Program-made: the position numbers and the translations under genes
Source of the DNA: Escherichia phage JEP8
Sequence record: MT764208.1
Length of the DNA: 64,000 nucleotides
Direction: 5' to 3' (one strand)
Part shown: positions 371 to 49,532 of the stretch, one piece after another
Position numbering within the stretch: the first letter of the stretch is position 1
Layout of the letters: every line of letters begins with the position of its first letter
The notes under the pieces: generated by a model
What the model was told of the DNA's origin: nothing
Databases searched by the model: none
The model's input: the letters and a program-made list of their open reading frames with translations, nothing else

Positions 371-378
371 TATAAATA
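371..378 (+). promoter_or_regulatory. T4-type late promoter box TATAAATA
   Basis: Exact TATAAATA about 34 nt upstream of the gp36-like ATG, followed by GAGG Shine-Dalgarno. Confidence 0.55.
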
Positions 379-43485: not shown

Positions 43486-43719
43486 TTATTTTACCTCTGG
43501 GATATAATCAATTATTAAAGAAAATTCATCTTCTGATACATTATAGCTATGTGAGATTGTACCCGTCAAGACCTCAAGATCCGGTGATTTGATATTGCAC
43601 GGATCGATAATCACCGGAACGCCGCAATCTCTCAAAAATAATTTGGCGAAATACGGCACGAGGTCAGTTTCAAACTCTGCTTCTTCCAGCAAACGGGAAA
43701 TGTTAATTTTCAATCTCAT
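43486..43719 (-). CDS. hypothetical protein (77 aa)
   Basis: ORF track; overlaps gp55 3-prime end. Confidence 0.4.
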
Positions 43720-44236
43720 AAAATTGGTCCAGGCTAGGCAATTCCTCAGTCAATACATCTTCAACCTTTGGCGCTTTCGGTTTATTGACCGATTCCTCGT
43801 AGTTGTTGATTTTATCGTAAATGTCCTGTATGAATGCCTCATCAGCAATCTGGCACATATCAGCGTCGCGTTCGTCATATACATGATGCACAAAATATTT
43901 GTATTTTGCGGCTGTCGCTGTTCTCTCTTTTTTAATGCGCTGTACAAAAGCATTAAAGCACGCTTGCGTGATGTAAGCATGAGGATTTTTATACTTTGTC
44001 TCGTCAAAATTAATCAAACCCTTGACCGCCGCTTCGATTCCGTCGTCGATCATTTCTTCGCGCCATGTTTGACTATAACCAGAAAAGTTAAAACGACGTG
44101 ATAGATTTTTAGAGATTTGCATAATTGCTAGGCCGATTTGATCGCTCATTGGAACTTGCCGACCTTCTGCTGCAATTTGTTGTTTCCAACGGCAAATTTC
44201 TTCGTAAAGCTCTTTATTGTTTACATAATCAGACAC
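43703..44236 (-). CDS. 55: late sigma factor gp55 (GTG start)
   Basis: [64 protein letters not shown]...YEES match recalled T4 gp55. Confidence 0.85.
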
Positions 44237-44276: not shown

Positions 44277-45746
44277 CTATTCCCCATTACCATTATACTT
44301 TCTTTGCTTAGTTATCCACACTCTAACCATCTCTACTGATTCACCGTCAGACGGATCAAGAGTTTTTCCTTTTTTCTTCATGCGATACTTAAATCCGTTA
44401 AATCTTGCATTCTCTTGCTCGTTAAAGTCGAACATCTTTTTAAATGATTTTCTCCCTTTACGCTCACCACATTCTAGCGGAATCATTCGGTCTGTTATTA
44501 CATTGGCATTAGGTAGAAACGTTTTTAGATAATCCACCAACGCCCAATCAGGAACATATAGATTAACATTCTCCTTGCTCTCGTTGTCTCTCAGGTTACA
44601 ACGCAAACATAATTGAAATGCTGGTTCCAGATAATCAGACACATGACGCGCTTTCAAAAACTCGTTTGTCGGGAGATCACAACTATTAGCAAGACCTTTT
44701 AAAATATCAATCTCCCATCGTTGAGGGTTAAAGCTGAACATCACAGCAACATTTTTATGATGAATGTAAGAGTTAAGACCATAAGATCCGTAAGGTATCC
44801 GCTCACCAATACCATTTGTGCACGCTTCACGGTCCCGATTCACGGTATAAATGAAGTCATCGCCACATTCATTTTTAACCATATCAACAAGACGTTCAAA
44901 GGTATTGTTTGTTTCTGACTGGTGACGCGACCAGCGTTCGGAGTCAGTCATAAGGATGATGTTAACTCTATCTGTATTTTTATACTCTTTGAAATATAGT
45001 CTGGATTCTAGCGCACTCGGAACAAAATCGCAATTTGCATAGTATCGTAGATACTTCCCACTATATGTATCAAAGAGATTTGCACATGCTATCGTAACCT
45101 TTTTAAAGTCTCCCCACGTACCGTGTTTGTTATCGTTCAAGAAAACAATTTTCGACCCATTCTTCCGGTGTCCTTCGTTATGTTTTACCATAACGTTGAT
45201 TTTCTTCTCTAATAACGCCTCATAAAGCCCTCTAAGAGAAGAATCGATCATATCAGTACCATCCTTTGCACTTTCTATCTTTTCTTTGATAGCGGCCTTC
45301 TCAGAGTCTTTTAGAACTAAGTTCTGTAGGCATTCCGATTCGTCGGCGATTGGTTCGCAATGCTTCGTGATAAGTTCAAGATTAGACTTAAACGGATACT
45401 CATTAAATTCAACCAGTTGAGGAACTTCATCAATGTAAAGAGCATATTCACCAAACATTTTTGAACGTTCCATATTAGATAACGCTGTATGTGTAATGAA
45501 TATCACATCAGCACCGTCTTTAACTGATTGCATTATCGACGCTTGCACTGTCTTAAGGCTTCTTAGTCTTGTGCTATCGATCAAGACAGCACGACCGCCC
45601 ATTCTTTTAAACTTATTGTAAGATTGTTCACTTAAAACACGAGATGGCGAAGCAATAACCGCTTTTTCTTTTGTCTCTAGGACGTGGGAAAGTATAGCAT
45701 CAGTTTTCCCCGCCGCTGGCAATGCGATTAATGTTTCAATCTTCAT
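44277..45746 (-). CDS. P-loop NTPase with SF2-helicase-like motifs, function unknown (489 aa)
   Basis: ALPAAGKT (motif I), SPSRVL (Ia-like), YIDEV (motif II) in N-terminal 110 aa; remainder unrecognised. Confidence 0.55.
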   Translation of the reverse strand: MKIETLIALPAAGKTDAILSHVLETKEKAVIASPSRVLSEQSYNKFKRMGGRAVLIDSTRLRSLKTVQASIMQSVKDGADVIFITHTALSNMERSKMFGEYALYIDEVPQLVEFNEYPFKSNLELITKHCEPIADESECLQNLVLKDSEKAAIKEKIESAKDGTDMIDSSLRGLYEALLEKKINVMVKHNEGHRKNGSKIVFLNDNKHGTWGDFKKVTIACANLFDTYSGKYLRYYANCDFVPSALESRLYFKEYKNTDRVNIILMTDSERWSRHQSETNNTFERLVDMVKNECGDDFIYTVNRDREACTNGIGERIPYGSYGLNSYIHHKNVAVMFSFNPQRWEIDILKGLANSCDLPTNEFLKARHVSDYLEPAFQLCLRCNLRDNESKENVNLYVPDWALVDYLKTFLPNANVITDRMIPLECGERKGRKSFKKMFDFNEQENARFNGFKYRMKKKGKTLDPSDGESVEMVRVWITKQRKYNGNGE

Positions 45747-46033
45747 TAGAAACCCTTACGTCGTGCTTTCTGGCATTTCTTGATCATTTTATCAGAAATT
45801 TCGCGCTTAGGTGCAAGCTCTTTCACACCGAAAGCACTAATGCCAAATTCAGAGAGAATATATTCAACCAACAATTCACGCACACGCGCTTTACCGATAT
45901 TCACGCCGTTATTTTTCAGATATGTCTGGCCTTCGACTTGCATCAGATCTAAATCAGCGTCGGTAATATTGATTTCTTCCATGCGCCCAAATCGAGAGTA
46001 AACCATGTGTGCGATTGCATTGTGTACTAACAT
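45746..46033 (-). CDS. hypothetical protein (95 aa), translationally coupled to the NTPase gene
   Basis: Trimmed to ATG after GAGGAA; stop overlaps NTPase ATG (TAATG). Confidence 0.5.
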   Translation of the reverse strand: MLVHNAIAHMVYSRFGRMEEINITDADLDLMQVEGQTYLKNNGVNIGKARVRELLVEYILSEFGISAFGVKELAPKREISDKMIKKCQKARRKGF

Positions 46034-46054: not shown

Positions 46055-46213
46055 TTACTTAATGATACTTACTTTACCAGATCCATGACAATGAGCGCAA
46101 CACCCATCACCACGTAATCCTGTTCCGTTACAGTGTTTACACTTCTTCAACGGTAAAGTCATTATAGCAAATAAAGCAATAATGAACACCGAAACTAAAT
46201 TCTCAATAATCAT
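46055..46213 (-). CDS. small membrane-anchored DnaJ-type zinc-finger protein (52 aa)
   Basis: GAGGG Shine-Dalgarno; hydrophobic N-terminus then CKHCNGTG and CAHCHGSG (CxxCxGxG repeats); not in ORF track. Confidence 0.45.
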   Translation of the reverse strand: MIIENLVSVFIIALFAIMTLPLKKCKHCNGTGLRGDGCCAHCHGSGKVSIIK

Positions 46214-46472
46214 AAATCGCCCTCAGTTCTTTATAGCCTCCAATGTGCTCGTTGTCAATGAATATCTGGGGGTATACAAACCGGAGGCTCTTTGAGTTCA
46301 GCCTCCCCGCCAGTTCTTCAATCATATCACGGTCGGGAATAATGTCAACCCCGACCTGCTTGAATACTGGTTTAAGTGTATACGGAATACCCAGATCATC
46401 CAGTAGCTTCATTGCACTAATACAACCATAACAATGATAAGCCTCTTTAGGTATACCGTATATCTCGATCAT
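46203..46472 (-). CDS. nrdH: glutaredoxin-like protein (NrdH/NrdC family)
   Basis: CYGC active-site motif, YPQIFIDNEHIGGY; position next to nrdG/nrdD. Confidence 0.7.
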   Translation of the reverse strand: MIEIYGIPKEAYHCYGCISAMKLLDDLGIPYTLKPVFKQVGVDIIPDRDMIEELAGRLNSKSLRFVYPQIFIDNEHIGGYKELRAIYDY

Positions 46473-46945
46473 TTCTCAGCCTTTAATCTTTCTAGTTCTT
46501 CTTCCAGTTCCTTGATCCGTTGGTCACGTTCAAAGTCACGCTGTAACTTAGTGGCGAATACTCGTTTAAACTGATTGTAATCATCGATTTTAAACACTTC
46601 TTCTTCGCCATAGCGACGCACAGAAACTTCGTAGTTATTGAAGAATTGTTGCATCATTGCTTCGGATGATAGTTCTGCTGATACTACTTTAAAATATTGA
46701 TCTTCGGTAGGTGAAAACCAATTACAAGCATAAAGATAAACCTTTTCATTGTCTGGACACTGATAAGCCTTACCATCGATTTCAATCACAGAAACATATT
46801 CAGGTATACTGGATGAATCAATAGCTAAGACTTTAAACGCACGGTCCCCGATAAACTCGGAGATCACACGATTCGCATCACTGGTTGCAAATGCTTTACG
46901 CGCTTGTTCGTTTTTCCACTGATAGGTCATACCAACAACAAACAT
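46469..46945 (-). CDS. repeat-domain family protein (1 copy) with C-terminal coiled coil
   Basis: GMTYQWK..FKVL..IEIDG..W.. domain; ERDQRIKELEEELERLKAEK tail. Confidence 0.55.
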   Translation of the reverse strand: MFVVGMTYQWKNEQARKAFATSDANRVISEFIGDRAFKVLAIDSSSIPEYVSVIEIDGKAYQCPDNEKVYLYACNWFSPTEDQYFKVVSAELSSEAMMQQFFNNYEVSVRRYGEEEVFKIDDYNQFKRVFATKLQRDFERDQRIKELEEELERLKAEK

Positions 46946-46946
46946 A

Positions 46947-47771
46947 TTACCAACCTCGCTCTTTACCGATCAAAAATTCAACTTCACGACGTTTAATATC
47001 TTCTTGAAGGTCTTTAATCTTCTGGCGATCTTGCATGATTTCGTCCATCTTGTCAAGTGCTGTAATGAAATCATCGAAACGTTCAAAGGTTTTACCTTCA
47101 TTTGCTTCGCCAAATTTAACCATTGTCAGGCCGTAACGACTACTAAACAGACGTTTCAACTGTCCAACGATCTTAGAATCAGTAGTGACGACTTCCAATT
47201 CTTCTACTTCTTGAAAGAATTTTCTATCAGAATCAATAAACCAGCTAATTCCTTTATGGTCTTTATCTTCGGTTGCACTCATTAGAGTATGGTCTTTACC
47301 ATCAATTTCAATTACATCAATTTGCCCACATGGACTAACCTTTTTAACAGTAAAAGGTCTATAATTTATTGCTCGTGCAATAACATAATTAAGGTTTGAT
47401 ACGTTTTCAGCATAATGGCAGAAGTCGGTCATAGCATTCGCATCTTTCCAAGTATAAGTTTTACCAACTTCCCATTTCTGGGGAACTTCTTCGACTTCAC
47501 GAAAGAATTTTCTATCGAATGGACTAAAGAAATATGTTGCAGTCCAAATGTCTTTTCCTGTAGCAGTTTTCGCCGTATGATAAACACCGTCTAGCTCTAT
47601 TGCATCAATCCAACCGTTACCCTCGATCTCGATGATGGTAAATGGCTTGTCACCAATAGCTGCACTAATATCGCTGTTAAGTGGAGAAAGAACACCTTCT
47701 CCGTTAGTAATAAACTCAGTTTTAGCGTTTTCGTCTTTCCAAGTGTAAGTTTTACCAATTTCCCATTTCAT
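46947..47771 (-). CDS. repeat-domain family protein (2 copies) with C-terminal coiled coil
   Basis: MKWEIGKTYTWKD.. and QKWEVGKTYTWKD.. internal duplication, each ending DRKFF.EV. Confidence 0.55.
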   Translation of the reverse strand: MKWEIGKTYTWKDENAKTEFITNGEGVLSPLNSDISAAIGDKPFTIIEIEGNGWIDAIELDGVYHTAKTATGKDIWTATYFFSPFDRKFFREVEEVPQKWEVGKTYTWKDANAMTDFCHYAENVSNLNYVIARAINYRPFTVKKVSPCGQIDVIEIDGKDHTLMSATEDKDHKGISWFIDSDRKFFQEVEELEVVTTDSKIVGQLKRLFSSRYGLTMVKFGEANEGKTFERFDDFITALDKMDEIMQDRQKIKDLQEDIKRREVEFLIGKERGW

Positions 47772-47783
47772 AATATATTCCCC

Positions 47784-48269
47784 TTAACCGATTTTATCAA
47801 GTTCGTTTAATGCTTTCTCTGCTTCCTGTATAGCTTGCACTCTTTCCGGCATTTTGTCAAGAAAATCTTTCAACTCTTCAAAACTGGAGATATGACGCAA
47901 GGCATTAGCACCGATAGCCGCATGTGATTTGCATTCAAAGCGGATTTTATAATTATCCATAGCCAATTTGAGAAGATCAATTAGATCATGTTCATGACCA
48001 GGCAATAAAACTTCTTTGAAGCACGCTCGGTCGTCATCGGAAAACCATATATTATCACCAACATCGATAGAACTAATATAATCCCCTTCGTGATTATAGA
48101 TTGAACGTACATTACCCCAACGGTCTACCGTAGCGACAGTAAATGGTTTATCTAGATATGTAAACACACCATCAATATTAGGTTTTTGTTCGTAACGCCA
48201 ACAATCACGCAAAATACGCTTTTCGTCCTCACCAACCAACTTATATGTCTTCCCTTCTTCCCATTTCAT
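47784..48269 (-). CDS. repeat-domain family protein (1 copy)
   Basis: MKWEEGKTYKL..; trimmed to the ATG matching family N-termini. Confidence 0.55.
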   Translation of the reverse strand: MKWEEGKTYKLVGEDEKRILRDCWRYEQKPNIDGVFTYLDKPFTVATVDRWGNVRSIYNHEGDYISSIDVGDNIWFSDDDRACFKEVLLPGHEHDLIDLLKLAMDNYKIRFECKSHAAIGANALRHISSFEELKDFLDKMPERVQAIQEAEKALNELDKIG

Positions 48270-48273
48270 AATA

Positions 48274-48801
48274 TCATCTCTCATTTTTGATACGTGATTC
48301 TAATTGGATCATACGGTCGCGCGTTTGCTTATATTCGCGGATAGCACCGATTCGGCTAGGCATACCATCCAGTACGCTCTTAATACCTTCTAGGGTAGTG
48401 ATTTTAGCAATGCTATTATGCAATCCTGTCTTATCGATCAACTGAATGTCGTAGGCTTCCATAAGCAGACCCAGACGTTCTAAAGTTAGGTCTTCTTCTT
48501 TTTCTTCCGATTCTGGAATCTTAGGTTCAATAGTAACTTCGGTAAAGAAACGACGCTCACCAGCCCAAAACCACACACCGGAACAGCCAATAGGGGATTC
48601 TTTTAACGTCATAGAGTCGAAATCACTACCAATAATAGTAATTTCTCTAACATCACCATCATCGTCAATGTCTTCTACCATAAACGGGCGACCAGCCAAC
48701 AAGTCCACAATACATCTGTTAATAGACGACGAAAATTTAGTCAGTTCGGCTTTCGACGCTTCGCATTCAATCTTGTAAGTTTTACCAACTTCCCATTCCA
48801 T
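48274..48801 (-). CDS. repeat-domain family protein (1 copy) with C-terminal coiled coil
   Basis: MEWEVGKTYKI.. after GAGGTGA; ERRFFTEV. Confidence 0.55.
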   Translation of the reverse strand: MEWEVGKTYKIECEASKAELTKFSSSINRCIVDLLAGRPFMVEDIDDDGDVREITIIGSDFDSMTLKESPIGCSGVWFWAGERRFFTEVTIEPKIPESEEKEEDLTLERLGLLMEAYDIQLIDKTGLHNSIAKITTLEGIKSVLDGMPSRIGAIREYKQTRDRMIQLESRIKNER

Positions 48802-48811
48802 AATAATCACC

Positions 48812-49315
48812 TCAAATAATTTTCACTGGAATACTATTAACAATCTTGTATTGTACTTGATTGTCAGACCCCCGCCACGGCTTCTTCGTTGGCATATCTT
48901 TAATATAACGCCCATCGATGAACATGTCAACTGATTCTACAATTTTTCTTTGCTCATCATTCAATTGGTCAAGGGTATAACCGGACCATAGCCAAATATC
49001 TTTATTTGGCATCCATGATTTTACTTCATCGATGATCCGCTGTACACCCTTTAAATTGCGTTTATACAGTGGATCGCCACCTAAGAATGTTAGCCCCTGA
49101 ATAAAATCAGGACTAAGCAGATCCAGAATCAATCCCATTGTATCATCGGTGAATGGTTCCCCGTTCTTAGGATTGAGTATACTGGAATTAAAACAACCAT
49201 CACATGCGTGTGAACATCCGGTAACGTAAAGGGAGACTCTCACTCCCTCACCGTTAACCATATCACAATCTTTAATATCGGCATAGCGTAGTTTGCCGTA
49301 TGTATCAGAACTCAT
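48812..49315 (-). CDS. nrdG: anaerobic ribonucleotide reductase activating protein NrdG (radical SAM)
   Basis: D.VNG.G.RV.L.VTGC.H.C.GC.N, GLT..GGDPLY, DIWLW.GY, KPWRGSDNQ match recalled T4 NrdG. Confidence 0.85.
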   Translation of the reverse strand: MSSDTYGKLRYADIKDCDMVNGEGVRVSLYVTGCSHACDGCFNSSILNPKNGEPFTDDTMGLILDLLSPDFIQGLTFLGGDPLYKRNLKGVQRIIDEVKSWMPNKDIWLWSGYTLDQLNDEQRKIVESVDMFIDGRYIKDMPTKKPWRGSDNQVQYKIVNSIPVKII

Positions 49316-49532
49316 ATTCAATTACCCCGAACTCGTTTACAATCTGCGCTTTATAGTAACCACCGCGAGATGCCAATAGATAAGCTGGTCTTAGGTATTC
49401 GTATTCACGGATTTCTACTTGTGCGTTTTCAGTTTCCCAAATCAGTAAAGTCCACATATTTGATTCTCCTGTAAAGTTGTATCTCGTCTTGATGAATATA
49501 GTATAGGGGATCTCGCGATCCCCGTCAAGAAT

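Follow-up and report, generated by a model that had tools for sequence, protein, structure and literature searches.

Escherichia phage JEP8 (sequence record MT764208.1) encodes, between nrdH and a homologue of gene 55.2, a microprotein of 52 amino acids (aa), in which a predicted N-terminal transmembrane (TM) helix is followed by a cysteine-rich tail with two CxxCxGxG motifs. We analysed this microprotein gene within a window of 64,000 nucleotides, i.e. the whole stretch of phage DNA under study, and we show that its open reading frame (ORF) is a real coding gene under purifying selection. We are highly confident in the gene taken together with its architecture of TM helix and two-motif finger. 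Sequence profiles and a structural model suggest that the tail is correctly described as a single DnaJ-type, anti-TRAP-like zinc knuckle, corresponding to half of a DnaJ Cys-rich domain. By analogy to characterised two-motif proteins, we tentatively propose that the microprotein acts as a membrane-tethered protein-binding module, which would engage a partner from the host or the phage on the cytoplasmic side of the membrane. The gene and its elements are the following:

46055 to 46213, minus strand: coding sequence of the microprotein (orthologue of RB49ORF046c; PHROG 3931), from the ORF listing, identity to RB49, frame conservation and the PHROG match
46220 to 46224, minus strand: Shine-Dalgarno sequence GAGGG, 6 nucleotides 5' of the ATG and within the last nrdH codons, from the sequence
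46154 to 46210, minus strand: TM helix, residues 2-20, predicted N-out/C-in, from hydropathy, flank charges, AlphaFold and conserved columns
46118 to 46141, minus strand: CxxCxGxG motif 1, CKHCNGTG, residues 25-32, from a motif scan, with invariant C25, C28, G30 and G32
46076 to 46099, minus strand: CxxCxGxG motif 2, CAHCHGSG, residues 39-46, from a motif scan, with invariant C39, C42, G44 and G46

The microprotein gene is conserved and under purifying selection

An earlier reading made from the letters of the DNA without database searches (the sequence-only reading) had placed an ORF at these positions without giving its strand. The ORF listing bears this out with the protein sequence MIIENLVSVFIIALFAIMTLPLKKCKHCNGTGLRGDGCCAHCHGSGKVSIIK and assigns the ORF, stop codon included, to the minus strand, the plus-strand reading of 46055-46213 containing many stops. 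The ATG (46213-46211) overlaps the 3' end of nrdH by 11 nucleotides, and the GAGGG ribosome-binding site (RBS) proposed for the gene is found at 46224-46220 in front of it. We suggest that translation of the microprotein gene is probably coupled to that of nrdH, an arrangement in which the overlap is kept in six diverged Krischvirus-like lineages, including the contigs L008, L010, L011, L012 and L014.

Diverged homologues were obtained by an exhaustive profile search of 1.84 billion proteins together with contig look-ups; a word-index protein search returned near-identical relatives only, so that the exhaustive search was required. The diverged full-length homologues in Krischvirus-like contigs show 35-85% identity and share one layout, i.e. 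nrdH, the microprotein gene with its overlapping start, 55.2 (DUF7570) and a gene encoding a 489-aa protein. Frame conservation in related phages, which the sequence-only reading had named as one way to check its proposal, was found across nine diverged lineages, in which the reading frame is intact and every insertion or deletion is a multiple of three. For the pair with the nearest diverged relative, L008, which differs by 13 synonymous and 10 non-synonymous changes, the ratio of non-synonymous to synonymous substitution rates (dN/dS) is 0.16; in all other pairs with unsaturated dS, it is below 1. A purine-rich GAGG/GGAG RBS lies 5-8 nucleotides before the start in all nine homologues examined, and the overlapping position of the start is conserved as well. 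Within the Krischvirus lineage, nearly all amino acid changes fall into the helix and the linker, the finger and the tail GKVSIIK being almost frozen. We also considered an RNA element in place of a gene and rejected it, as the ORF region has no Rfam match at E<=1 and its RNA fold is unremarkable, being slightly more stable than that of shuffled sequences (z = -1.8).

The cysteine-rich tail resembles one half of a DnaJ Cys-rich domain

A scan of all six frames of the window for stop-free C..C.G.G matches returns only the two CxxCxGxG motifs of the microprotein. Shuffled windows contain a mean of 0.26 single motifs, and 0 of 300 have a double motif in an open frame. Across 16 homologues, C25, C28, G30, G32, C39, C42, G44 and G46 are the only invariant residues. 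A fifth cysteine directly before motif 2, C38, is kept in 12 of the 16 and replaced by P, K, T or R in the other four. Motif 2 is followed by a conserved tail, K-V-S-I-I-K, and the protein ends 6 residues past this motif. The first cysteine of motif 1 and the first of motif 2 are 14 residues apart, a register which both anti-TRAP (3LCZ, residues 10-35) and, in its second motif pair, the Cys-rich domain of E. coli DnaJ (1EXK) match without gaps.

A profile built from the 16 homologues matches 1EXK with E=3.6e-12, both halves of this domain being alignable to the phage module, and it also matches human DNAJA3 (2CTT; E=1e-7), anti-TRAP (3LCZ; E=2e-6) and, more weakly, the lambda Q finger. The exhaustive library search recovers genuine J-domain DnaJs, i.e. 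30 larger matches with an HPD tripeptide within their first 80 residues. The Pfam model DnaJ_CXXCXGXG (PF00684) is matched by the JEP8 protein with 14.6 bits (E=0.042), missing the gathering threshold of 32.7, and by 15 of the 16 homologues at E<=0.1, with a best E=4.7e-5. The NCBIfam model RtpA (NF058604) is likewise missed, with 13.4 bits against a cut-off of 65, and BSD2_CRD is matched by two family members.

AlphaFold2 gave a poor model with 6 sequences (predicted local distance difference test score, pLDDT, of 61), and the run with the 16-sequence alignment was used instead. It predicts, with a mean pLDDT of 78.8, a helix at residues 2-19 (pLDDT about 80) followed by short beta-hairpins. 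Foldseek places the anti-TRAP structures 3LD0, 3LCZ and 2BX9 at the top of its Protein Data Bank (PDB) matches, with a root mean square deviation of 0.9-1.2 Å over 28-29 residues and probabilities of 0.92-0.99, followed by DnaJA2, DNAJA3, lambda Q, DnaJ (1EXK) and BSD2 (6EKB). We infer one Zn(Cys)4 site with C25, C28, C39 and C42 as putative ligands.

The sequence-only reading had described the tail as a DnaJ-type zinc finger with two CxxCxGxG repeats. The repeats and the motif type are supported by the 1EXK profile match, by the recovery of genuine DnaJs and by the 15 of 16 homologues touching PF00684. A full DnaJ domain is not, as there are two motifs, one predicted zinc site and scores below the thresholds. 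The 52-aa protein has no HPD tripeptide, and no match to the Pfam J-domain model DnaJ was found at E<=10.

The N-terminal helix is predicted to place the tail in the cytoplasm

Membrane anchoring by a TM helix, as proposed from the sequence, gains support from computation: residues 2-20 have a mean Kyte-Doolittle hydropathy of 2.36 over 19 residues, and the AlphaFold model is helical in this segment. Flank charges were read from the 13 phage-lineage members of the 16-sequence alignment. None of the 13 has a Lys or Arg before the helix, and the N-terminal flank usually contains a Glu. The segment past the helix carries Lys and Arg, with a net charge of +4 in the JEP8 protein. By the positive-inside rule, this distribution predicts an N-out/C-in orientation and thus a cytoplasmic Cys-rich tail.

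Both phage clades that encode the microprotein have kept Glu4, right at the beginning of the TM helix (IIE.., WIE.., WLE..), and it is conserved together with Ser8, Ala13 and Phe15, which lie roughly on one helix face (Glu4 to Phe15, nucleotides ~46169-46204, minus strand). This conserved face hints at a helix that is more than a passive anchor. A survey of RB49 from 2006 had listed the orthologue RB49ORF046c with a non-significant prokaryotic N-terminal methylation motif (E=0.43; Nolan et al. 2006, table; PMC1524935), and this table is the sole literature mention of RB49ORF046c that we found. A type IV pilin-like motif of this kind has a leader with a terminal Gly, followed by a hydrophobic segment with Glu at +5. 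We rejected it, as no Gly precedes the hydrophobic segment in the Krischvirus proteins; the N_methyl model of the current Pfam gives no match to the microprotein at E<=10.

Two unrelated phage groups encode the microprotein

Over the 801 bases surrounding the ORF, the identity to 58 Krischvirus records (RB49, phi1, JSE, GEC-3S, ECD7 and others) is 98.6-99.1%, which identifies the JEP8 window as Krischvirus (RB49-like), and the ORF is intact in 58 of these 58 records. The microprotein is 100% identical to RB49ORF046c (AAQ15321.1, ‘hypothetical protein’) and to UniProt Q7Y3T0, and it matches PHROG 3931, a family of unassigned function, with E=4.4e-10 (residues 9-48 against profile positions 16-56 of 59). 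The sequence-only reading had noted the ORF as missing from its ORF track. This is most likely explained by the 52 aa falling under the usual 60-aa listing cut-off. The public records do annotate it, as RB49ORF046c since 2003 and as ‘putative membrane protein’ in records including those of the phages W115 and Makalu, with two Krischvirus records leaving it without annotation. We found no DnaJ-type finger assignment for RB49ORF046c in sequence records or literature, and no functional study of RB49ORF046c, Felix01p243 or PHROG 3931 in the literature.

A second clade with the same architecture and 42-44% identity is present in about 258 records of Ounavirinae, e.g. as FelixO1 ORF131 (NP_945023, ‘hypothetical membrane protein’), its holders being Felixounavirus, the Mooglevirus-like phages Sf15 and Maleficent and the Suspvirus SUSP2. 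In this clade, the 3' end of an unrelated 111-aa ORF (phrog_4262) overlaps with the microprotein gene, and rIIA and rIIB follow downstream. The microprotein gene is not adjacent to any glutaredoxin gene here, and the upstream 111-aa ORF has neither a CxxC nor similarity to NrdH. Among cultured phages, the TM-anchored two-motif form is restricted to Krischvirus and Ounavirinae. T4 has no equivalent between nrdH and 55.2. We rejected its positional equivalents, as the membrane protein 55.8 lacks Cys motifs, and 55.6 and 55.4 are unrelated, soluble proteins. Present in two groups of Enterobacteriaceae myoviruses that are unrelated to each other, with a different gene context in each, and absent from T4, the microprotein gene thus behaves as an accessory gene.

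In several Felixounavirus entries (L002, L004 and L005; P0006, P0008, P0010 and P0012), we observed frameshifted homologues of 63 aa, which enter the overlapping +1 frame at four different positions, and the GE_vB_B3 copy, from a record marked UNVERIFIED, aligns in two pieces. A programmed frameshift was rejected, as the breaks lie at differing positions and not at a single slippery run; the breaks are therefore probably sequencing errors or sporadic loss.

Genomic neighbours and expression context

The genes surrounding the microprotein gene are the following:

46203 to 46472, minus strand: nrdH, 89 aa, glutaredoxin-like, directly upstream (Pfam Glutaredoxin 23.4 bits, cut-off 22.9; RB49 annotation)
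45746 to 46033, minus strand: 55.2 homologue (DUF7570), downstream (PF24454, E=1e-28; RB49 annotation gp55.2)
44277 to 45746, minus strand: 489-aa DEAD-like P-loop protein RB49ORF044c, next after 55.2 (PF00270, 27.4 bits; phrog_2467)
43703 to 44236: late sigma factor gp55, beyond the 489-aa gene

The placement of the microprotein gene between an NTPase operon and nrdH, as read from the sequence, is correct, the order being nrdH, microprotein gene, 55.2 and 489-aa NTPase gene. The 55.2 homologue starts 21 nucleotides past the microprotein stop and has its own RBS, GAGGAA; with this distance and the overlap with nrdH, the microprotein ORF fills the whole gap between nrdH and 55.2. The match of the 489-aa NTPase to the DEAD/DEAH helicase N-terminal model is marginal (27.4 bits, cut-off 26), and every Krischvirus-like contig examined encodes this protein along with 55.2 and the microprotein.

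The window contains a single copy of the T4-type late promoter core TATAAATA (371-378, plus strand), where shuffles predict 5.9, and the long ORFs from ~8 to 62 kb are nearly all on the minus strand. This is consistent with the microprotein gene sitting in one long minus-strand early-gene block, and the gene is probably expressed early, in coupling with the upstream gene. Promoter-like sites in the region number 28 versus 21.4 expected, which is no significant enrichment. One near-consensus sigma-70-type promoter lies inside nrdH (46321-46348, minus strand; TTGACA, 16-nucleotide spacer, TG-TATGAT; 11 of 12 matches), ~110 nucleotides upstream of the microprotein start, and could allow transcription independent of nrdH.

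Between nrdH and nrdG (46469-49321, minus strand), we observed tandem paralogous ORFs of 158, 274, 166, 178 and 169 aa, whose proteins share an N-terminal ‘W-E-x-GKTY-x-W/K’ domain; the two ORFs of this array that were scanned match phrog_5347 and, weakly, GoF-like ‘mRNA metabolism modulator’ PHROGs. The counterpart in RB49 comprises 158, 274, 154 and 175 aa, and the array is therefore a paralogue cluster which is plastic in member number and size.

A membrane-tethered binding module is tentatively preferred over alternative functions

We propose the following model. The gene would be expressed in the early region and translated from the conserved Shine-Dalgarno sequence inside the end of nrdH, giving a bitopic inner-membrane protein of 52 residues with a single TM helix at residues 2-20. 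Only 1-4 residues, including the conserved Glu, would face the periplasm. Residues 25-46 are predicted to fold as two short beta-hairpin knuckles around one zinc ion, and this zinc domain would be held against the membrane on its cytoplasmic side. Together with the conserved GKVSII strand at the C-terminus, the zinc knuckle may bind a protein of host or phage origin at the inner membrane face, and the binding would inhibit, sequester or localise that partner. The absence of a J domain, of a second zinc centre and of a catalytic signature speaks for a binding module and not for a chaperone or enzyme, and such a module is also favoured by anti-TRAP and the plant protein FIP, both characterised two-motif proteins, acting by binding. 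The genomic region around the microprotein gene contains small host-directed ORFans, and 55.2 of T4 inhibits host topoisomerase I (PMC4396842).

The more specific version, in which an anti-TRAP-like membrane-tethered inhibitor or adaptor captures a specific enterobacterial inner-membrane protein and was exchanged between Krischvirus and Ounavirinae for a shared host target, we consider rather doubtful. Candidate partners would be FtsH, by analogy to FIP only, and a membrane-bound component of defence or envelope stress.

Several observations weigh against a binding module with an anti-TRAP-like knuckle in the cytoplasm. The Foldseek E-values are weak (0.09-0.3), owing to the very short domain, and all matches to curated DnaJ or anti-TRAP models are below threshold, the likeness being mostly in the Cys/Gly pattern. 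The anti-TRAP trimer is built on a C-terminal helix, and the phage model has none, its sole helix being the TM helix. Some Ounavirinae members, with a net acidic C-terminal flank, show a weak positive-inside signal. The gene context provides no clue to a partner: the coupling to nrdH is lineage-specific, and the Ounavirinae copy lies beside the 111-aa ORF and rIIA.

Among the alternatives, a redox partner of NrdH is the first to be weighed, although we regard it as improbable. The Cys-rich tail would then be a thiol-disulfide oxidoreductase or a redox-sensitive zinc switch at the membrane, a role reported for the DnaJ Cys-rich domain and for plant CYO1/LQY1, and it would work with the co-translated glutaredoxin. 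This is suggested by the microprotein start overlapping the nrdH stop across diverged Krischvirus-like lineages, but such overlaps are commonplace where phage operons are tightly packed, and in Ounavirinae the microprotein gene likewise overlaps a neighbour, there an unrelated one. With an upstream ORF lacking both CxxC and NrdH likeness, the Ounavirinae homologues do without an adjoining glutaredoxin. A ‘Rosetta stone’ link to glutaredoxin was rejected as a general explanation, as these copies follow an unrelated ORF and precede rIIA. A weak match to GRXCR1-2_C (E=0.0036), an animal Cys-rich tail fused to a glutaredoxin domain, points in the same direction as the overlap, but it is sub-threshold, spans 12 residues and occurs in 2 of the 16 members. 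The fifth cysteine, C38, beside a zinc ligand and kept in 12 of the 16 members, is a further point in favour, yet four members have P, K, T or R at this position. For DnaJ itself, oxidoreductase activity is on record (PMC8262869).

Quite improbable in our view is a J-domain-independent holdase or co-chaperone, in which the tethered finger would bind unfolded polypeptides or DnaK and aid insertion or assembly of phage membrane proteins, modelled on plant BSD2, OR and PSA2-type proteins helping specific clients. In its favour, the phage module resembles the Cys-rich domain of DnaJ, in which the zinc centres act in substrate binding and in the interplay with DnaK (PMC5915565). BSD2 is among the structural matches (6EKB) as well as in the BSD2_CRD matches of two members, and a metagenomic relative, P0009, combines a TM helix with all four motifs. 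Against this, the microprotein has a single zinc centre and no client-binding beta-sandwich domain, and its soluble part of 27 residues is very small. No chaperone genes lie in the neighbourhood, and the Pfam survey of novel RB49 ORFs reported no J-domain protein (PMC1524935).

The opposite topology, N-in/C-out, would turn the tail into a periplasmic, disulfide-bonded domain with a role at the envelope, e.g. in superinfection exclusion or lysis timing. Many small single-pass proteins of T4-type phages, such as Sp, RI and Imm, act in the periplasm and set a precedent; the Ounavirinae copy lies directly upstream of rIIA and rIIB, the C-terminal flank is acidic in some Ounavirinae members, and the distant matches P0098 and P0105 resemble signal-peptide or lipoprotein versions. 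However, an N-terminal flank containing Glu but no Lys or Arg is the opposite of the n-region of a Sec signal or signal-anchor, and the C-terminal flank of the JEP8 protein carries +4. Moreover, where CxxCxGxG knuckles of this kind are known, as in anti-TRAP, DnaJ and FIP (PMC2896485, PMC5915565), the compartment is the cytoplasm or the stroma, and we judge a periplasmic tail to be hardly probable.

That there is no gene at all, the ORF being due to chance or the segment being an RNA or regulatory spacer between nrdH and 55.2, is extremely improbable, its short length of 52 codons, the two unannotated Krischvirus records, the fold stability slightly above shuffles and the sigma-70-like site within nrdH being set against a frame that stays open even where synonymous divergence is saturating and that shows only in-frame indels, eight invariant residues exactly at the motif positions, a conserved RBS, homologues in an unrelated phage subfamily, the lack of an Rfam match at the cut-off used and the 0 of 300 shuffles with a double motif, so that the comparative data effectively refute the chance-ORF reading.

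Relevance

Host takeover, exclusion or lysis is often under the control of small phage membrane proteins, a class that is nevertheless systematically under-annotated. The microprotein family is present in more than 300 sequenced genomes of the RB49-like and FelixO1-like groups, to which many phages tested or isolated for therapy and biocontrol belong. The annotation of the ORF and the frequency of two-motif knuckles in phage ORFans are already known; what is new is the zinc-finger type for RB49ORF046c, a sound improvement of the annotation and not a surprise. Placing the protein with the DnaJ/anti-TRAP zinc knuckles makes a ‘hypothetical protein’ testable. If a host partner exists, the microprotein would provide a compact scaffold for membrane-targeted inhibitors, and if it acts as inhibitor or adaptor, it would represent a new class of host-takeover microproteins, defined by a TM anchor and a single DnaJ-type zinc knuckle.

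Comparison with known systems

Type I DnaJ/Hsp40 proteins share the motif, and 1EXK is the best sequence-profile match of the phage module. In DnaJ, two interlaced zinc centres are built from four motifs, whereas the phage protein has two motifs and one predicted site. DnaJ furthermore contains a J domain, a G/F region and C-terminal substrate-binding beta-sandwich domains, all of which the phage protein lacks. Lacking a J domain, a second zinc centre and the C-terminal domains, the microprotein is not a DnaJ. As a separate observation, the metagenomic proteins P0009, P0039 and P0047 (96-99 aa; L016, 1614-1904, and L017, 4001-4291) have an N-terminal TM helix and all four CxxCxGxG motifs without a J domain, i.e. 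a complete membrane-anchored DnaJ-type Cys-rich domain; P0009 is found on phage-like contigs also encoding a LAGLIDADG endonuclease.

Other phage proteins with CxxCxGxG motifs are mostly soluble or parts of larger proteins, whereas the microprotein is TM-anchored. RB43ORF179c is a soluble phage protein of 61 aa with two motifs, the lambda Q zinc finger is among the PDB matches to the phage module, and BFVD contains dozens of two-motif models (‘DnaJ-like’, ‘Anti-TRAP domain’), nearly all of them uncharacterised.

Anti-TRAP (AT, RtpA; PF15777) of Bacillus is a zinc-dependent protein of 53 aa, compared to 52 in the phage, which inhibits TRAP through binding (PMC2896485). Both proteins have exactly two motifs in the same 14-residue register, with one Zn(Cys)4 site in anti-TRAP, and anti-TRAP is the best structural match to the phage model (~1.0 Å). 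Anti-TRAP is soluble and forms trimers and dodecamers via its C-terminal helix and N-terminal residues, whereas the phage protein has an N-terminal TM helix instead. The target of anti-TRAP, TRAP, belongs to the regulation of the Bacillus trp operon. To our knowledge, TRAP is absent from enterobacterial hosts.

The plant protein FIP (At5g02160) contains a TM helix and two CxxCxGxG repeats without a J domain, has a stromal C-terminus and binds FtsH5 (PMC5915565). Without its transit peptide, FIP shows the architecture of the phage protein, i.e. a short trans-side N-terminus, one TM helix and a C4 finger on the stromal side, which is equivalent to the cytoplasm. FIP is eukaryotic, plastid-targeted and reported only from mosses and land plants, and the likeness to the phage protein is one of architecture, compared at the motif level only, which does not imply common descent. 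LQY1, CYO1/SCO2, HCF222, OR and BSD2 are further thylakoid DnaJ-like zinc-finger proteins of the FIP kind without a J domain. The closest analogues of the microprotein are anti-TRAP for the zinc module and plant FIP for the architecture.

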